IMG/VR virus record: IMGVR_UViG_3300025676_000004
Location: 1 to 64,000 of that record
Length of the DNA: 64,000 nucleotides
Source of the DNA: a virus
Taxonomy: Duplodnaviria > Caudoviricetes
Strand: one strand, 5' to 3'
Both the position numbers and the translations under genes were made by a program. This document shows positions 1,500-63,068 of this stretch, in pieces. The notes under the pieces were generated by a model. That model worked only from the letters and a program-made list of their open reading frames with translations, was not told the origin of the DNA and made no database searches. Position 1 is the stretch's first letter. Every line of letters begins with the position of its first letter.

Positions 1500-3947
1500 A
1501 TGAAAACATTTAATAAAATAAAAGAACAAATTTTAATCGAATCCAATCAATGGGTTTTGGGTTTTGATTTTACTGTAGACTATACTAGTAAAGAGGGTCG
1601 TGCAATACAAGACGACCTCATAACCAAATTCAAGAAAATCTATAGTGGTAGTGGTTCTGGTGGTTCAGGATTTGATGTTTCTTTCCAAGGACCAAAGAAA
1701 GAAATTGATAAAGCAAAGAAGTATGTTGAGTCAAAATACAAGAGAGATATTGATAAAAAGTACACGAACTTATATCTTGACGAATCCGTAAAACTGGATG
1801 AAGCAAGTCAACTATTCGGTGGGGACACGAACATTCCTGCCGATAAGAAAACCAAAGGATATATCGAAAGTGGCAGAGCAAAGATTCTAATGAATGTGCA
1901 ATCTTCTCTCCATACTTCTGCTCGGTTTGTTGTGGCCAAAAACCCCAACACAGGTAGCAACCAAGACAAAGTATTGATGTTTACCATCAGTGACCCAGAC
2001 CGTGGTCGCATCAAGATGTTCGCATTCCACGGTAGTCATGTTAGTCATCAAAAGGCGATGGACTTTGCAAAGAGACATAAACTTGTTGCGAAGAAAGATG
2101 CAAAGGGAAATCCTCTCTATGCAAAAGAATCCGTTGAACTGGATGAAGCAAAAGTCCCGGCAATTACATTTGAATTCCCAGATGAACGAAGAGCAAGGCA
2201 ATTTGACTTAGACATTGAAAATTCTGCTATCGGTGTGGGTGACCAAATTGGGAATAGAGTAACCGTCACGGATGTTGAGACTAGGTGGCGTGCCGCTGTT
2301 AAGAAAGCAATGATAAAGAGTAAAGGCACAGTCGTAAAAGAATCCGTTGAAGAAGTAGATGAAATAGTATTTGCTCAACATAAAAAGTTGAAGAAAGCAG
2401 GAGGAAGACAACTCAAAGACCCAAGAACCGAGGTCATGGTAGTTGACGAAAAGGGAAAAGTGATTGTAATCGACAGAAAAGATTTGAAAAAATATGAAAA
2501 AGAAGGTTGGGAACTTGCTGAATCCGTTGAACTGGATGAGCGTTTAGCATACCACCACGAACCAGATGCAAGAATGCGGAAGGGTATCGAAAGTGGTAAA
2601 TATCCAATGGTCGCTTCCAAGAAATCCATTCTGGGTGGTAACACATTGTTTGGTGTTTTCCAATTTACTGGAAAGGCCGCAGGCGGTGGTCCAGAACCAG
2701 GCACAACCAGTGATAAAGGAATGAGATATAGTGTCGATGGATATGTAATGGCAATTGTAGACAAAAAGAACAAGGTTTTGGCCTATTACGGTTCACACCC
2801 TTCCCCTCAAGGTGCAATTGATAAGTACGGCCGATTTCATGGACTTATTGGTGAATCCGTTGAACTGGATGAACGACTAAGTGACAGAGAAATGGATACT
2901 TTCAATAAAGCACACACTGCTCTACATACCAAATATCACAAACAGGCATTACAGATTATTAAGTTTATCGACAGTGTAGAAAAGCATAAACAAAAATGGG
3001 TAGATTCATTTGGTGATTATGTCACTCCGAAAATGAATCCAGAATTGGCGTTGTCTAACCCCAACAGTGTTGAATATCAACAAGGTAGAGGTAGAGGTGA
3101 TTGGTCTTTCCTCATTGGACACGGCAAGGTAAGATACAATAACAGGGATATGCCGTGGAATCCAAAGAGTGGTGAACTTCCATTCGACAAGTTTATGAAG
3201 TTGCTTGATACTTGGAAGTCGGAAACTCTAAGAGAATCCGTTGAACTGGACGAAGTATCTCTGAAAGCAAAAGAATGGATTATTGTGGACAGAAAAACTG
3301 GTAAAGTTCTTTTTGGTCCTGATTCACACGATGCAGTAGAGAAGCAAGCAGAGAAGAAGCACGGTAGAAGATGGAACAACAAACTTACACTCACCCACAA
3401 CAAAGAGAAACTAAAAGTAGGTGAGGTTGACAAGTACTTTAAGAGAAGAGCAGAATCCGTTGAAGTGAATGAAGCAACAAAATGGAAAATGGGCGATGGT
3501 AGACCAAGAGGTGGTTCTCATATAGAGAATATCAGATTTTGGGATTTAACAAAAGATGAATTAGAATATATCATAAAAGATGCCGGCAAGGCAATGAAGG
3601 CAAATCCAAAAGCAAGAAAAGCAACTACTGGACCAGGCAATTGGGCTGACCAAGTTAATGATGCTCATACTGTTCTTGGATGGAGAAAGAAGAACGGTAT
3701 CAAAGAATCCGTTGAACTGGATGAAGCAAAAGCCTGGGATAATATTGTGAAAATCCAACAAGACCATACTGCGAAGAAGATTCACGGTATGTTGGTTGAT
3801 GCTCAAACTGCAAATGCATTGATTACGGTACACGATGCACTCAAAAAGAGTGGCAATAAGAAGACATTCATTGATACCATCAATAAGAATAAAGCAGGAT
3901 TGGTTAAGATGGTAGACTTTGCTTGGAAACAAGTAAGTTTTAAATAA
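1500..3947 (+). CDS. Modular polyprotein, putative internal head (ejected) protein precursor with 8 ESVELDE linkers
   Basis: 815-aa ORF with AAGGA RBS; MKTF...ILIE leader; eight ESVELDE-type linkers separate short basic modules. Confidence 0.8.
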   Translation: MKTFNKIKEQILIESNQWVLGFDFTVDYTSKEGRAIQDDLITKFKKIYSGSGSGGSGFDVSFQGPKKEIDKAKKYVESKYKRDIDKKYTNLYLDESVKLDEASQLFGGDTNIPADKKTKGYIESGRAKILMNVQSSLHTSARFVVAKNPNTGSNQDKVLMFTISDPDRGRIKMFAFHGSHVSHQKAMDFAKRHKLVAKKDAKGNPLYAKESVELDEAKVPAITFEFPDERRARQFDLDIENSAIGVGDQIGNRVTVTDVETRWRAAVKKAMIKSKGTVVKESVEEVDEIVFAQHKKLKKAGGRQLKDPRTEVMVVDEKGKVIVIDRKDLKKYEKEGWELAESVELDERLAYHHEPDARMRKGIESGKYPMVASKKSILGGNTLFGVFQFTGKAAGGGPEPGTTSDKGMRYSVDGYVMAIVDKKNKVLAYYGSHPSPQGAIDKYGRFHGLIGESVELDERLSDREMDTFNKAHTALHTKYHKQALQIIKFIDSVEKHKQKWVDSFGDYVTPKMNPELALSNPNSVEYQQGRGRGDWSFLIGHGKVRYNNRDMPWNPKSGELPFDKFMKLLDTWKSETLRESVELDEVSLKAKEWIIVDRKTGKVLFGPDSHDAVEKQAEKKHGRRWNNKLTLTHNKEKLKVGEVDKYFKRRAESVEVNEATKWKMGDGRPRGGSHIENIRFWDLTKDELEYIIKDAGKAMKANPKARKATTGPGNWADQVNDAHTVLGWRKKNGIKESVELDEAKAWDNIVKIQQDHTAKKIHGMLVDAQTANALITVHDALKKSGNKKTFIDTINKNKAGLVKMVDFAWKQVSFK
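1782..3725 (+). repeat. Eight dispersed in-frame 21-bp direct repeats, consensus GAATCCGTTGAACTGGATGAA
   Basis: Copies start at 1782, 2127, 2340, 2520, 2853, 3234, 3453 and 3705; spacings 345, 213, 180, 333, 381, 219 and 252 bp are all multiples of 3. Confidence 0.95.
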
Positions 3948-3968
3948 AAAGAGAACCGAATGGTTCTC
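3946..3968 (-). terminator. Rho-independent terminator hairpin, U-tract on the minus strand (possibly bidirectional)
   Basis: GAGAACC-gaat-GGTTCTC stem-loop at 3951-3968 with A5 at 3946-3950. Confidence 0.65.
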
Positions 3969-4067
3969 CTATGGTCCTTATAAATAATGTATAAACCTAA
4001 CACAGATATTTAGAATGAGTATCGTGAAGTGTCAAGGATAAAAATTGTTATTTTTGTAAAATAATAT

Positions 4068-4096: not shown

Positions 4097-4774
4097 ATGG
4101 TAATGATTAGTGAAAAGCAATATAACCACCTAGAAGTAGAAACGAAGTTTGATTCTTTGCCTGTTGAGCAGAGAAACGGCCTTCGTTTTTATCAATCCCC
4201 ATCGGGAAAATGGCTGCCATCTGTAACAACAGTAACAGGATGGAGCAAACGAGAATTCTTCAAAGAGTGGCGAACTAAACCAGGCAACCAAGCAGAATCT
4301 CGTAGATGTCTAACAAGAGGCAATGAACTTCATCAAATTATTGAAGATTACATCAATAACAAAGAAGACATATTTAAAACAAAACAGCCACAAAATATTG
4401 AATTGTTCAAACAACTCCAACCAGAACTACATCGCATTGACAATGTGGTATGTCAAGAAGTGCCATTATGGTCAGACACAGTTTCTTTGGCGGGTAGGGT
4501 AGATTGTATTGCAGAGTTTGACGGTAAATTGTCTATCATTGACTTCAAGGGTAGCAGTAAACCAAAAAAAGAAGAATGGATTGAAAATTACTTCCGACAA
4601 ACAACTGCTTATGCTATAATGTACCAAGAGAAAACAGGAATGAAGATTGATAATATTGTGATTATGGTTGCCAATGAAGATGGTTCAAATCAAATATTCC
4701 AAAAGAACCCAGTATATTATGTTGAAGGTCTATACAACGACATCAAAACATTTTATGAGGAAGTAGAATTATGA
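4097..4774 (+). CDS. PD-(D/E)XK exonuclease (Cas4-like), T4-like phage family; true start may be ATG 4103
   Basis: LPSVTTV, RGNELHQIIE, LAGRVDCIAEFDGKLSIIDFKGS and QTTAYA motifs. Confidence 0.88.
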   Translation: MVMISEKQYNHLEVETKFDSLPVEQRNGLRFYQSPSGKWLPSVTTVTGWSKREFFKEWRTKPGNQAESRRCLTRGNELHQIIEDYINNKEDIFKTKQPQNIELFKQLQPELHRIDNVVCQEVPLWSDTVSLAGRVDCIAEFDGKLSIIDFKGSSKPKKEEWIENYFRQTTAYAIMYQEKTGMKIDNIVIMVANEDGSNQIFQKNPVYYVEGLYNDIKTFYEEVEL

Positions 4775-58839: not shown

Positions 58840-60369
58840 ATGCCAATTGACTTTTTTGGATTTACTATTGGAAAAAAAGATAAAGCGAATAAAGTTGGTC
58901 TTGAATCCAGTATTCGCCGCCCTGTGTCTTTTGTCCCACCCGATTATGATGATGGTGCTACAACCATCGAAGCAGGAAACTTCTTCGGACAATATGTTGA
59001 CTTTGATGGAAACATCAAGAATGACATAGAACTCATTAAGAAGTACAGAGAGATGTCTATGCACGCCGAAGTAGATAGTGCAATAGATGACATTGTGAAT
59101 GAAGCAATTGTTCAAGATGATATTAAAAAGATGGTTCAAATGGACTTAGAACATGTTGACCTATCCGATAATATCAAAGATACAATGCAGAAGGAGTTTG
59201 GACATATCTTAAAACTCCTTCATTTTACTAGTAGGGGTTATGAACTTTTCCGAAAATGGTATATTGATGGTAAAATGTATTTCCATATTGTAATTGACGA
59301 TAAGAAAAAGAAACAGGGTATTAAAGAATTACGACCAGTAGATTCCACTTCCATCCGAAAGATTCGTAAAGTTGAAAAAGAAACGGGCGAAGGTGGTGTT
59401 AAGGTAATCAAAGATGTGGAAGAATTCTTTGTATACACTGAACAAGATAAAGATGATAGGTTAGGTGGAGTTGATGCCGTGGAAGGTATTAAAATTCATC
59501 CAGACTCAATTCTCTACATTCATTCTGGAATGTATGATATTGATAAAAGAAGGGTATTTGGTAATCTTCATAAATGCATAAAACCCCTTAACCAATTGCG
59601 TATGATTGAAGATGCGGTAGTAATTTATCGTATCTCACGGGCGCCAGAGCGAAGAATTTTCTATGTTGATGTTGGTTCACTTCCAAAAAACAAAGCAGAA
59701 CAATATCTTCGTGACATTATGAATCGGTATAGAAACAAACTAGTTTATGATGTAAATACAGGCGAAATTCGAGATGACAAGAAACATATGTCAATGCTTG
59801 AAGATTTCTGGATGCCACGGAGAGAAGGTGGTAGGGGTACTGAGGTTGATACACTTTCGGGTGGCGAAAATCTTGGTGAGATGGAAGATGTCGAATACTT
59901 CAAGAAGAAGTTATATCGTGCATTGAATGTTCCAATCTCACGACTTGAATCTGACAACGGATTCAATATGGGTCGTTCTTCTGAAATCAATAGAGATGAA
60001 CTCAAGTTTTTTAAGTTCATTGAGAAGCAACGACAGAAGTTTTCTGAATTGTTCCTTCAAGCAATGCGAGTACACCTTCTATTGAAGGGTATTATGAACG
60101 AAGAAGATTGGTATGATATTAAGGATGATATTAAATTTGATTATGCAAGGGATTCGTATTTTACGGAACTCAAAAATAATGAGATTATGACCGAAAGAAT
60201 GAATCTTTTAAGTCAAATGAATGAACATATCGGTAAATATTATTCAATCGAATGGATTAGAAAACATGTCTTGCATCAGAATGAAGTAGAAATGGAAGAT
60301 ATGGATAAGGAAATCCAAACAGAACGAGAGAAGGGTCTATTAACCACAGGAACAGAGGAATACTATTGA
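58840..60369 (+). CDS. gp20: Portal protein gp20
   Basis: NQLRMIEDAVVIYRISRAPERRIFYVDVG, MLEDFWMPRREGGRGTE, RDELKF. Confidence 0.97.
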   Translation: MPIDFFGFTIGKKDKANKVGLESSIRRPVSFVPPDYDDGATTIEAGNFFGQYVDFDGNIKNDIELIKKYREMSMHAEVDSAIDDIVNEAIVQDDIKKMVQMDLEHVDLSDNIKDTMQKEFGHILKLLHFTSRGYELFRKWYIDGKMYFHIVIDDKKKKQGIKELRPVDSTSIRKIRKVEKETGEGGVKVIKDVEEFFVYTEQDKDDRLGGVDAVEGIKIHPDSILYIHSGMYDIDKRRVFGNLHKCIKPLNQLRMIEDAVVIYRISRAPERRIFYVDVGSLPKNKAEQYLRDIMNRYRNKLVYDVNTGEIRDDKKHMSMLEDFWMPRREGGRGTEVDTLSGGENLGEMEDVEYFKKKLYRALNVPISRLESDNGFNMGRSSEINRDELKFFKFIEKQRQKFSELFLQAMRVHLLLKGIMNEEDWYDIKDDIKFDYARDSYFTELKNNEIMTERMNLLSQMNEHIGKYYSIEWIRKHVLHQNEVEMEDMDKEIQTEREKGLLTTGTEEYY

Positions 60370-61193
60370 TGCAATCCACCAATAAAATTATGGATTCTAT
60401 AAAAAATGAAGATGTAAAAACCTTCAAAGATTTATCCAATGATATTCTTCGTCATAAAGTTTCTTTATCAATAGAAGAAAAGAAACAAGAAATTAAAGAT
60501 GTAATGATGAGTGAAGAAGAAGAGGCAGAAGTAAATATGGATTCTCCTGAAATTGCTCTTGACCCAAAACTAGAAAAAGAAATCTGGATTGATTCTTTTG
60601 AGATAAATGGTAAAACAGTTGTCATTAAAGCATTGGGATTAGGGGCAACCAAACCTGTAGTTGTCTATATTGACGATGTACGATGGGAAGTATTTCCTGG
60701 ACCAAAGATTGCTAAACGAGAAGCAAGACGACATATCAAGAAGAGCAAAAGTGTCAAGAACGAAAATCTTGATGTTGATTTTGAATCAATGCTCAATGAA
60801 GTTTCTGTGATGGTAAGTAAACCTGAAGTGGTCAAATGGGTAAAGAAGAACAGAAGAAAATTTGACAATGGTGCAGAGGCCGCATTTGCTGTTGCTGATG
60901 AATTTGGTATGGAAGATGAATTAGAGAACGAAAAGCATTGGATTTGGAGTATCATTAAAAAGATATACAAAGAATCATACGAACCTTTCTCTAATATGCT
61001 AGAATCAAATTCCTTCCGATTAGCAGATAACACTAAAATTAATTTGGATGAAGAACTATCGTCCAAAATTAAACTTGTATATGAACATTTGGAAGATAAC
61101 AATAAAGCCAAATTCAGAGAGGCTTTTGTTATAAATAAAGAAAACCACAACAAAATTATTAAATTTGTTGAAGAGCAGACTAAAGGAACTTGA
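60369..61193 (+). CDS. Prohead core protein (gp67/gp68 position), multi-module
   Basis: Between portal and protease; gp67-like N-terminus; internal MLNE/MLES sites; ATG 60369 preferred over TTG 60366. Confidence 0.6.
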   Translation: MQSTNKIMDSIKNEDVKTFKDLSNDILRHKVSLSIEEKKQEIKDVMMSEEEEAEVNMDSPEIALDPKLEKEIWIDSFEINGKTVVIKALGLGATKPVVVYIDDVRWEVFPGPKIAKREARRHIKKSKSVKNENLDVDFESMLNEVSVMVSKPEVVKWVKKNRRKFDNGAEAAFAVADEFGMEDELENEKHWIWSIIKKIYKESYEPFSNMLESNSFRLADNTKINLDEELSSKIKLVYEHLEDNNKAKFREAFVINKENHNKIIKFVEEQTKGT

Positions 61194-61195
61194 TT

Positions 61196-61366
61196 ATGGA
61201 TACTAGAGATATAATTGATGCATTAAGAAACAATAACTTGGATGTTGCAAGAGATGAAACACAAAAGGTATTGTATAAGAAATCTGGTGAAGGTATGGCG
61301 GATAAAAGGTTGGAAATTTCTTCCACAATAGGACAAAAACAAGAACCAGAGGTAAATGACGAATGA
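61196..61366 (+). CDS. Small prohead core protein, gp67-like (missing from the ORF track)
   Basis: MDTRDIIDALRNNNLDVARDETQKVLYKK...KRLEISSTI, 56 aa; stop overlaps the gp21 start (ATGA). Confidence 0.75.
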   Translation: MDTRDIIDALRNNNLDVARDETQKVLYKKSGEGMADKRLEISSTIGQKQEPEVNDE

Positions 61367-62013
61367 AACTAATTACAGAAACAACAGAAGATGTAAATTA
61401 TATCGTAGAATCGGCTGAAGAAGGAAAAGATAAATCCTACTACATCGAAGGTATCTTTATGCAAGCAGAGCAAAAGAACCGAAACGGTCGAGTTTACCCA
61501 AAAGACACACTAATGAAAGAAGTTTCTCGGTACAGTAAAGACCTTGTAGAAACTAAAAGAGCAATGGGAGAACTTGGTCATCCAGAAGGACCAAGTCTAA
61601 ATCTTGAAAGAGTTTCCCATATCATTACAGAACTTCGAGAAGATAGCAATAATATCATCGGTAAAGCAAAAGTTTTAGATACCCCATACGGTAAGATTGT
61701 AAAGAATCTTATTGATGAAGGTGCTAAACTTGGCGTTTCAAGTCGTGGCATGGGTTCACTTAAAAAGAATGATGACGGTACAAATGTTGTGCAAGAAGAT
61801 TTTATGCTTGCCACCGTTGATATTGTAGCAGACCCTTCTGCACCTGATGCTTTTGTAAATGGTATTATGGAAGGGAAGGAATGGGTATGGAATAATGGCG
61901 TTCTAGAACCTCAAACTATTGAAATTTATGAGAACATTTTATCCAGAGCAGATAAAAATACTATCGAAGAAGCCAAACTTATCGTATTTAAACATTTCTT
62001 GTCTAATATCTAA
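61363..62013 (+). CDS. gp21: Prohead protease gp21
   Basis: YIEGIFMQAE.KNRNGRVY, GELGHP, LGVSSRGMGSL, DIVADPSAPDAFV. Confidence 0.97.
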   Translation: MKLITETTEDVNYIVESAEEGKDKSYYIEGIFMQAEQKNRNGRVYPKDTLMKEVSRYSKDLVETKRAMGELGHPEGPSLNLERVSHIITELREDSNNIIGKAKVLDTPYGKIVKNLIDEGAKLGVSSRGMGSLKKNDDGTNVVQEDFMLATVDIVADPSAPDAFVNGIMEGKEWVWNNGVLEPQTIEIYENILSRADKNTIEEAKLIVFKHFLSNI

Positions 62014-62060: not shown

Positions 62061-63068
62061 ATGTCCAACAAAGACATCCTAGAAACAGCAAAAGAAATCA
62101 TAGAGTCAGAAGTGACTCTTGATGAAAGTACCCCAGAAGTCGAAGCAGACTCAAAGGGTACAGTTAATACAAAGTCTAAAGGCGAGAAGCCAGCAGAATC
62201 ACCATCTGTTAATACTGACAGCATCGAAGATGAAGACATCTACAGTGCTGATGGTGCAGGTGCAAAAGTAAATGAACCAGAAGCAGATGAAGACGAAGCA
62301 GACGAAAATGCTGACTCCGTTGATATGAAAGCATCTTCGGCGGCCGCAACACAAGAGCATATGGATGCTTTGTTCGGTGGTGAAGAACTTTCAGAAGACT
62401 TCCGCAACAAAGCAGAAGTTATCTTCTCATCCGCAATCAATGAGCGTTCAGAAGCAATCCGTTCCGAACTACAAGAAGCATTTGATGCTCAACTTGCAGA
62501 AGAAACTGATAAAATTTCAAATGAACTATCCGAAAAACTAGACGACTATCTAAACTATGTTGTCAAGGAATGGATGGACGAAAATGAAATCGCAATTGAA
62601 CACGGACTCAAGAATGAAATTTCAGAGTCATTCATTGCAGACTTAAAGACACTCTTTGAAAGTCACAACATTGAAGTTCCAGAAGAAAAGTTCGATGCAC
62701 TTGCAGAGGCCAACGAAAAGGTTGAAACTCTTGAAGCAAAACTCAACGAACAACTCGAAAAGAACATTGAACTTTCAAAAGGTAACGAAGAACTAGAATG
62801 TGTAAAGGTATTTGCAGAATCCGCTAAAGATTTAACTGATACTGACACTGAAAAACTTCGCAGTCTTTCAGAAGGTTTAGAGTTTGATAGCGTTGAACAA
62901 TACAACGAAAAATTAAACCTTCTTAAAGATAGTTACTTCAGAGCAACCTCAGAAAACAATGATGATGTTGAAGAAAACACACTTACAGAAGAAACAACAA
63001 ATACTCGACAAATGGATTCATACTTGGATTCAATTACACGAGTAGGAAAATCACCAAGGCAATCGTAA
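62061..63068 (+). CDS. gp22: Prohead core scaffold gp22
   Basis: Acidic coiled coil; ELSEDFRNKAEVIF, DDYLNYVVKEWM.EN, LKDSYF. Confidence 0.93.
   Translation: MSNKDILETAKEIIESEVTLDESTPEVEADSKGTVNTKSKGEKPAESPSVNTDSIEDEDIYSADGAGAKVNEPEADEDEADENADSVDMKASSAAATQEHMDALFGGEELSEDFRNKAEVIFSSAINERSEAIRSELQEAFDAQLAEETDKISNELSEKLDDYLNYVVKEWMDENEIAIEHGLKNEISESFIADLKTLFESHNIEVPEEKFDALAEANEKVETLEAKLNEQLEKNIELSKGNEELECVKVFAESAKDLTDTDTEKLRSLSEGLEFDSVEQYNEKLNLLKDSYFRATSENNDDVEENTLTEETTNTRQMDSYLDSITRVGKSPRQS

Follow-up and report, generated by a model that had tools for sequence, protein, structure and literature searches.

A 21-nucleotide (nt) repeat that recurs in frame within a single phage gene probably plays two roles at once, as a protease-site linker and as a homologous-recombination joint through which protein modules are shuffled in frame across diverged marine myophages. 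The gene lies in a 64,000-nt stretch of viral DNA (positions 1 to 64,000 of IMG/VR record IMGVR_UViG_3300025676_000004), hereafter the window; the genome record of this phage is 134.8 kb long. Here a single open frame on the + strand (1500..3947) encodes a polyprotein of 815 amino acids (aa), with nine modules (m0-m8) and eight linkers. The window belongs to an uncultured marine T4-like myophage. Gene shuffling at conserved intergenic motifs and swaps of tail-fibre pieces at conserved coding motifs are already known in phages, and the same principle would here operate within a polyprotein. What sets this case apart is a probable recombination joint that is itself a repeated, in-frame, protease-site-coding 21-mer inside the polyprotein, common to several genes per genome and to diverged phages.

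The linker repeat and its codons

The window has 10 copies of the core of the repeat, GAATCCGT, where 1.17 would be expected, and eight of these copies stand in frame in the open reading frame (ORF) at 1500-3947, starting at 1782, 2127, 2340, 2520, 2853, 3234, 3453 and 3705. The start-to-start distances between successive linkers (345, 213, 180, 333, 381, 219 and 252) are all divisible by 3. The consensus 21-mer, GAATCCGTTGAACTGGATGAA, encodes ESVELDE and is matched exactly by linkers 2 (2127..2147), 5 (2853..2873) and 8 (3705..3725), all linkers being on the + strand. Linkers 4 (2520..2540) and 6 (3234..3254) encode the same peptide, with GAG as the last codon of the former and GAC for the Asp of the latter, and linker 1 (1782..1802; GAATCCGTAAAACTGGATGAA) reads ESVKLDE. 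These six share the string CTGGAY, as CTGGAT five times and CTGGAC once. The other two depart from it: linker 3 (2340..2363) is 24 nt long, encodes ESVEEVDE and keeps GAATCCGTTGAA before diverging, and linker 7 (3453..3473) encodes ESVEVNE. When up to 3 mismatches were allowed, the 21-mer had 7 matches in the window and 0 in 100 shuffles, and at the same threshold none was found outside the array in the rest of the genome record.

Two of the fixed codons are rare in this DNA. Elsewhere among the genes of the window, Ser is encoded by TCC in 9% of cases and Leu by CTG in 3%, whereas in the linkers the figures are 8/8 for TCC and 6/6 for CTG. For any one copy of the peptide ESVELDE, the consensus codon string has a probability of about 5e-4, and the synonymous identity of the linkers is far beyond chance. 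None of the six transfer RNAs (tRNAs) of the genome reads CTG or TCC; their genes (Arg-TCT, Asp-GTC, Lys-TTT, Ile-TAT, Leu-TAA and Glu-TTC) lie on the minus strand at 112658-118175 of the record, outside the window. The original prediction, made from the letters of the window, had pointed to eight in-frame copies that keep GAATCCGT, six that keep CTGGAY, spacings in multiples of 3 and the rarity of TCC and CTG elsewhere, and each of these observations was confirmed.

The repeat in other genomes

A search of related genomes for the repeat, as the original prediction had proposed, recovered the exact 20-mer in 55 IMG/VR stretches on 52 contigs, often with 2-6 copies in one gene and, on a single contig, in as many as three genes. 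The comparators are all metagenome assemblies; labels such as L012 denote these related loci or contigs, and labels such as L012_1 their polyprotein ORFs. In the 55 stretches and the window together, ESVELDE is encoded in frame 131 times, with the exact 20-mer in 103 copies; 125 copies have TCC and 113 have CTG, and neither GTT nor the middle GAA varies in any of the 131. A foreign origin of the repeat's codons was considered and rejected: all 55 loci are AT-rich, with a guanine-plus-cytosine (GC) content of 34-42%, and TCC and CTG are rare in them (medians of 9% and 6% in their other codons). Across 113 distinct junction contexts from 50 loci, the synonymous positions of the linker are 0.87-1.00 conserved and the flanking positions 0.31-0.68; the mean linker value of about 0.94 compares with a baseline of about 0.5 in core genes and in other lineages. 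Cellular genomes totalling 596 Gb gave 6 single matches to the 20-mer, 2 of them in frame with one isolated ESVELDE each, and no repeat array was found among these matches.

Degenerate back-translated scans widened the comparison to the peptide itself. Among the matches listed, 206 of 210 further loci encode ESVELDE as part of an ORF of 60 aa or more, in its reading frame, and they spell it in dozens of synonymous ways, the commonest being GAATCTGTTGAACTTGATGAA; common codons such as TCT/CTT are used in other lineages. The family-wide synonymous frequencies from the degenerate TCN/CTN scan are rough and refer to the matches listed; the mean codon identity between the further ESVELDE loci is 3.5/7. 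So many spellings at so low an identity argue that the peptide alone does not fix the codons, in agreement with the earlier contention that a protease motif by itself would leave synonymous sites free, and the fixed 21-mer marks one set of phages, or exchange community, rather than being general to the motif. Degenerate linkers (ESYLNE, ESELNE, EFVEINE and ESFELDE) also occur, and they would fit a picture in which linkers decay when idle.

Different lineages carry linker types of their own. In L322 (= L308), a 733-aa minus-strand ORF contains a distant relative of m1 in a polyprotein with five linkers, EDVEQVDE and variants, whose DNA is near-identical within the gene (GAAGATGTCGAACAGGTTGATGAA). 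The 20-mer of this linker is found in only 5 stretches, and its DNA identity is uninformative as a replicate, because GTC and CAG, which it uses, are frequent codons in those contigs (GC 41-47%).

The codons could also be held by selection at the level of messenger RNA or translation, either through a rare-codon pause at domain boundaries or through a hairpin (AUCCG/CUGGAU), with module exchange being incidental. We regard this as unlikely, even though the rarity of TCC and CTG and the lack of phage tRNAs that read them would suit a pause, and a 5-bp hairpin with the loop UUGAAC, which pairs the third bases of TCC and CTG, is part of the predicted minimum-energy fold of 6/8 linkers. A pause is conceivable in this clade, but it leaves the invariance of GTT and GAA unexplained, and other lineages use common codons such as TCT and CTT. 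As for the hairpin, linker folding energies are mostly no better than those of shuffles (z from +1.3 to -3.5), covariation of the Ser and Leu third positions is absent in 178 independent ESVELDE copies (85 paired vs 78.5 +/- 6.3, p = 0.18), and the pair is broken in 10/14 variant copies of the close clade. Moreover, the most invariant synonymous positions (9 and 12, 100% each) fall in the predicted loop whereas the stem positions vary, and Rfam yielded no matching family.

Module order, module number and horizontal movement

We cut 295 polyprotein ORFs at their linkers and clustered the resulting unit modules into families (labelled by F-numbers, and otherwise u); since single-linkage clustering merged 261 modules into one family, stricter unit-module families were used instead. 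The module order in the window is F37/F0/F4/u/F0/F5/u/F49/F19. The same families appear elsewhere in other arrangements, including F38 F0/F5/F8/F2 in L012_1, F4/F0/u in L034_1, F2/F0/F8/... in L001_1 and .../F5/F28/F6/F49 F38 in L035_1, and F37, the N-terminal module type in the window, is placed internally in L035_2. The most widespread cassette is F0, represented in the window by m1 (1803..2126, + strand), with homologues in differing neighbourhoods on >20 contigs; it is preceded by F37, F38, F2, F4 or F16 and followed by F4, F5, F8 or others. A second F0 module, m4 (2541-2852), is an old paralogue of m1, from which it differs in all but 29% of aligned residues, with the motifs IESGK and (F/Y)(H/Y)GSH.S.Q.A in common.

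Module number varies as well. In syntenic position, flanked by the homologue of 1103-1489 on one side and the exonuclease gene on the other, the array is 815 aa long in the window, 678 in L036, 496 in L045 and 245 in L033. The gene of L033, the closest relative by flanking genes, has about 3 modules against 9 in the window, and in it an m0-like module leads straight into an m2-like one, the junction between the two being degenerate. Some polyprotein genes that carry these linkers stand at a different location, directly between the portal and protease genes, in L006, L014 and L027.

Two cassettes of the window can be traced to other phages with defined edges. Cassette m5 (family F5; 2874..3233, + strand), bounded by linker 5 on the left and linker 6 on the right, has copies of 85-86% aa identity in L012_1 and L048_3, where it stands beside different neighbours, and its nt identity to L012_1 is 87%. 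Cassette m7 (family F49; 3474..3704, + strand), bounded likewise by linkers 7 and 8, is 91% identical in aa and 94% in nt to a cassette of L035_1, although the core proteins of L035 are just 37-62% identical to those of the window.

Comparison with the core genes separates shared descent from movement. Core proteins on the 20-mer contigs have 35-89% aa identity to their counterparts in the window, with a codon identity at identical residues of 0.41-0.64; a gp32 fragment with 83% aa identity still has a codon identity of 0.47. Because these values equal the codon identity of unrelated ESVELDE copies, synonymous sites must be saturated between the genomes. Module codon identity, by contrast, is 0.80-0.94 in diverged phages (m1 in L027, L034 and L012; m5 in L012 and L048; m7 in L035), and L033, L045 and L036 are the closest phages by flanking genes, but the most similar modules are found elsewhere. 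Saturated core genes together with high-identity modules in phages that are not the closest show, by comparison, that the cassettes moved horizontally after the genomes had diverged.

Recent common ancestry alone, through tandem duplication or closely related genomes and with no part for recombination, is a very unlikely explanation of the linker identity. It can draw on the paralogy of m1 and m4 and on the codon identity of m1 homologues, which at 0.6-0.9 implies that part of the clade-wide identity is young DNA. However, most modules are mutually unrelated, and m1 and m4 have diverged as far as they have while being flanked by identical linkers. The synonymous saturation of core genes on the same contigs largely refutes this explanation, and the hybrid linkers and precisely bounded identical cassettes described below show exchange rather than descent.

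We likewise give almost no credence to the idea that the mosaics are chimeras created by metagenome assembly at a short repeat. The region does trouble assemblers, as many IMG/VR contigs start or end at or near a linker (L008:1-20, which starts exactly at one, L017:14-33, L007:156-175, L009:4928-4947 and L034:9333-9352). The repeat (20-31 nt) nevertheless falls short of the k-mer lengths on which final contigs usually depend, several arrangements recur unchanged in different samples (L012/L047, L001/L049 and L003/L039/L044), and the cassettes of the window are shared at 86-94% rather than the 100% that chimeras would give. The position of the contig ends suggests that assemblies break in these genes through coexisting array variants in the sampled populations.

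Breakpoints and probable crossover inside the linker

Among close-clade polyprotein genes, nt matches of at least 85% identity are cassette-sized. When match ends that are internal in both partners were considered (n = 94), 46 fell within linkers and 73 no farther than 6 nt from them, against 8.5 +/- 2.8 inside for random placement. In one case, L010_1 and L011_1 have in common a 309-nt block of 100% identity that opens with the first base of a linker and closes with the final base of the following linker, with unrelated flanks on both sides.

A hybrid linker locates one such switch more closely. L017_1 is 99.4% identical to L036_1 from one linker onward, and upstream of it L017_1 is about 91% identical to a different L036_1 module. 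The linker at this point in L017_1, GAATCC...GAG, combines the 5' markers of the linker that follows that upstream L036_1 module (GAATCC...GAA) with the 3' marker of its positional counterpart in L036_1 (GAGTCT...GAG), which places the switch within GTTGAACTGGATGA.

The same pattern is visible in the junctions at large. In pairs of junctions that have only the upstream flank in common, linker bases 1-7 differ in 0/32 pairs and bases 15-21 in 13/32; in pairs that have only the downstream flank in common, the corresponding figures are 8/30 and 2/30. Fisher's test gives p of about 0.002 for each, with pairs that are not independent; counted by clusters, the figures are 0/11 and 5/11 (upstream shared) versus 4/9 and 1/9 (downstream shared). 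This asymmetry argues that each half of the linker is inherited with the neighbouring module, as repeated crossing-over in the linker predicts. Together, the 309-nt block, the hybrid linker and the co-segregation of linker halves point to crossing-over within the repeat.

The original prediction had expected related arrays to differ in the number and order of modules, with breakpoints in the repeat, and had named the linker as the place of in-frame gain, loss and exchange. The variation among arrays (for example, about three modules in L033, and F0 in many contexts), the 46/94 match ends inside linkers, the identical cassette, the hybrid linker and the co-segregating halves all bear it out, and the contrary outcome, a fixed module content with freely varying linker codons, was not seen in this clade. 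Its description of the 21-mer as a homology handle fares well for in-frame exchange in this clade and fails as a general property of the motif, given the dozens of spellings in the wider family.

Proposed cleavage and capsid targeting

The linkers end in L/V-x-E, and the polyprotein starts with a leader, MKTFNKIKEQILIE (1500..1541, + strand; read from the sequence), that ends in L-I-E; L045_1 and L036_1 open with leaders of the same kind, MKTFKELRLITE and MKTFTELKLFTE. The internal proteins of T4 carry the capsid-targeting leader MKTYQEFIAE, gp21 cuts them after L/I-x-E, and the portal-protease gap of T4 holds prohead-core genes. By eye, we take the leader of the polyprotein to resemble that of T4. 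The same phage encodes a gp21-type prohead core serine protease (61363..62013, + strand; Pfam Peptidase_S77, E = 4e-41; PHROG head maturation protease), and its scaffold protein (62061..63068, + strand) has three close L/I-x-E sites at the N-terminus (DILE, EIIE and TLDE), the third of which is within a linker-like site, SEVTLDE.

The leader, the L/V-x-E linkers, the SEVTLDE site of the scaffold and the location of related polyproteins in the portal-protease gap lead us to read the linkers as prohead-protease sites; most likely, they are cut after Glu by the phage's own gp21-type enzyme. The polyprotein would then be targeted to the capsid and cut into about nine small internal proteins, and the modules are probably injected with the DNA.

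The 815-aa protein has no Pfam or PHROG family match, a tblastn search of 50,697 deposited phage records with it returned no relative, and a literature search on the linker peptide returned nothing relevant. An AlphaFold2 model of m1 has a small alpha/beta fold (predicted local distance difference test score of 80), for which Foldseek returned no match in the PDB. Outside the window, at about 132545 (+ strand) of the genome record, a second ORF of 496 aa begins with a T4-like capsid-targeting leader, MKSFKQYIIE, and its product may be another packaged internal protein.

Proposed mechanism and points against it

We propose that polyprotein genes of the same phage, or of co-infecting phages, would cross over at the 21 bases by general homologous recombination, for which T4-type join-copy or strand-invasion recombination would be the likely route. 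Each event would insert, delete or replace whole modules, and since every junction carries the same repeat in the same frame, neither the reading frame nor the cleavage site would be broken. Recurrent exchange within the community would keep the linker near-identical in rare codons while the core genes drifted to synonymous saturation. A further step is inferred because the linker halves travel with the modules, so that recombination alone does not preserve the rare codons: cassettes with perfect linkers would spread most easily, leading to concerted evolution or molecular drive, or else second-order selection would act. Direct selection for exchangeability is also possible, though the identity of the linkers may instead be a by-product of recurrent recombination.

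Several considerations weigh against this proposal. If each half merely passes on along with its module, recombination alone leaves the persistence of rare codons unexplained, which is why preferential spread or selection has to be added. The efficiency of T4 recombination drops steeply below about 50 bp, and since 21 bases are short for it, any single infection probably sees few exchanges. Surviving breakpoints would also gather at linkers under selection for intact cleavage sites, so the position of breakpoints alone is no proof of homology-guided exchange; the breakpoint pattern alone would likewise be expected if modules were merely the units that selection preserves. The related loci were first found by an exact 20-mer search, which introduces an ascertainment bias. 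Finally, cleavage and capsid packaging are deduced from sequence.

A dedicated system is also conceivable, in which the 21-mer would be the target of a sequence-specific nuclease whose breaks trigger local gene conversion. A candidate is at hand in an HNH endonuclease gene (276-794) that lies 700 bp upstream of the array, and its homologues keep this upstream position in L021, L033, L045 and L050, with 63-77% aa identity. Such synteny and conservation are, however, unlike those of a mobile homing gene, and nothing ties the specificity of the enzyme to the repeat. Furthermore, where arrays with the same linker stand in the portal-protease gap (L006, L014 and L027), no HNH homologue was detected in the available contig DNA. 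We therefore consider a nuclease target highly improbable and general homologous recombination at the repeat the better account.

A broader version of the recombination proposal can be formulated, although we hold it only tentatively and rather doubt it. A community of diverged marine myophages would possess a cassette platform that works without an integrase, pooling capsid-delivered effector modules that any member could re-assort in frame, through ordinary recombination, at co-infection, and second-order selection favouring exchangeable modules would keep the 21-nt repeat DNA-identical.

Comparison with known systems

The original prediction had likened the array to an integron or to clustered regularly interspaced short palindromic repeats (CRISPR), a likeness that proved to be architectural only, in the alternation of repeats and spacers; no recombinase, attC-like structure or non-coding array was found. 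Integrons have a tyrosine-recombinase integrase with attI and attC sites, whereas the repeats here are direct and coding and lack attC-like imperfect palindromes, and the 20 window proteins scanned against PHROGs, the array's neighbours included, contain no recombinase. CRISPR arrays are non-coding, come with cas genes and take their spacers from invaders; here the repeats belong to one ORF with in-frame 'spacers' of 159-360 nt that fold as protein modules. The exonuclease gene that adjoins the array (4097-4774) has a secondary PHROG match to a CRISPR/Cas-associated nuclease family, and apart from that match no cas-like gene was found among the same 20 proteins.

The internal proteins of T-even phages offer an analogy. 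The ip1 locus reportedly codes for internal proteins that are packaged in the capsid and whose conserved N-terminal leader gp21 cuts at L/I-x-E, and it is said to be polymorphic among related phages. The leader, the gp21-type cleavage motif and the polymorphism recur here in a protein known from sequence alone. T4 internal proteins, however, are the products of separate small genes with one leader each; in the window about nine modules are fused in one ORF, and exchange would take place between internal repeats. Polymorphic toxins (the VENN motif of CdiA, Rhs core motifs and orphan C-terminal modules) also have a short coding motif that bounds modules replaced by homologous recombination, and they are alike in having a short conserved coding motif at the exchange boundary. 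They differ in having a single boundary per gene and in serving bacterial toxin-immunity, and no toxin or immunity domains were detected in the window polyprotein.

Two described mechanisms, the PeSL motifs and the tail-fibre motifs treated below, come nearest to the present one. In T4-type genomes, ORFan cassettes have been proposed to undergo homologous recombination at repeated PeSL motifs (Arbiol et al. 2010, PMC2839356; Comeau et al. 2014, PMC4122927), which would let whole units insert, excise and swap more efficiently than illegitimate recombination (PMC2839356, PMC4122927). The likeness lies in a short, repeated, conserved motif as the proposed exchange site in T4-like genomes. A PeSL, however, combines an intergenic early promoter with a stem-loop and moves whole ORFan genes, whereas the present repeat is a 21-nt coding segment in one frame that would move protein modules; the linkers carry no promoter, and their hairpin is weak and without covariation.

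Conserved coding motifs that mediate shuffling have been described in the tail-fibre and adhesin genes of T-even phages, according to work reported at second hand (Tetart et al. 1998, cited in Trojet et al. 2011, PMC3157838). As far as that account goes, the two systems are alike in having conserved coding motifs between variable segments of one gene. In the T-even case, going by the same account, the motifs are structural parts of one folded host-range protein; here they are putative cleavage-site linkers between independent modules, with up to 8 per gene and several genes per genome. Of the features expected of motif-mediated in-frame exchange, we found a coding motif that bounds the modules, shuffled contexts with breakpoints in the motif and DNA conservation beyond the peptide.

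Polyvalent proteins, described from phages and conjugative elements, join many unrelated domains in one polypeptide, which presumably reaches the host along with the DNA and is then split by proteolysis (Iyer et al. 2017, PMC5512222); recombinational variability of their cassettes has been suggested, and they contain recognisable conflict-related domains, often together with embedded peptidase domains to which domain release is ascribed (PMC5512222). The window polyprotein is unlike them in that no module matches Pfam, the protease would act in trans and one nucleotide-identical linker is repeated; several recognisable conflict domains would mark a polyvalent protein, and neither the family scans nor the m1 model yielded any.

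One short sequence that served as both protease site and recombination joint would allow modules to move between phages with frame and processing kept. If the modules are injected with the DNA, abundant ocean phages could rapidly re-assort host-takeover or counter-defence functions, and the uncharacterised modules would form a catalogue worth testing. Those who engineer multi-cargo arrays for capsid delivery in T4-type vectors could also take a natural design rule from this arrangement.

Neighbouring genes and other features of the window

The window has 36.7% GC, and its gene content, assigned with Pfam and PHROG, includes a gp59-like helicase loader, a gp32-like single-stranded-DNA-binding protein, terminase, sheath, tube, portal, prohead protease and scaffold. 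Among named phages, Methylophilales phage Melnitz and cyanomyophages come nearest, with structural genes that are about 66-68% identical in nt.

The gap between the portal and protease genes, which ESVELDE polyproteins occupy in L006, L014 and L027, is taken in the window by a 274-aa ORF (60369-61193). This ORF has no family match, and a BLASTP comparison with the last polyprotein module (3726-3944) showed no similarity.

No late-promoter motif ATAAATA was found upstream of the polyprotein gene within 1-1500. Right behind its stop codon, at 3949-3987, a 9-bp stem-loop (AAGAGAACC...GGTTCTCCT) is followed by TATAAATA, the T4 late-promoter consensus, of which the + strand of the window has 10 copies against about 1 expected. 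The juxtaposition of stem-loop and promoter at this site is reminiscent of PeSL-type boundaries.

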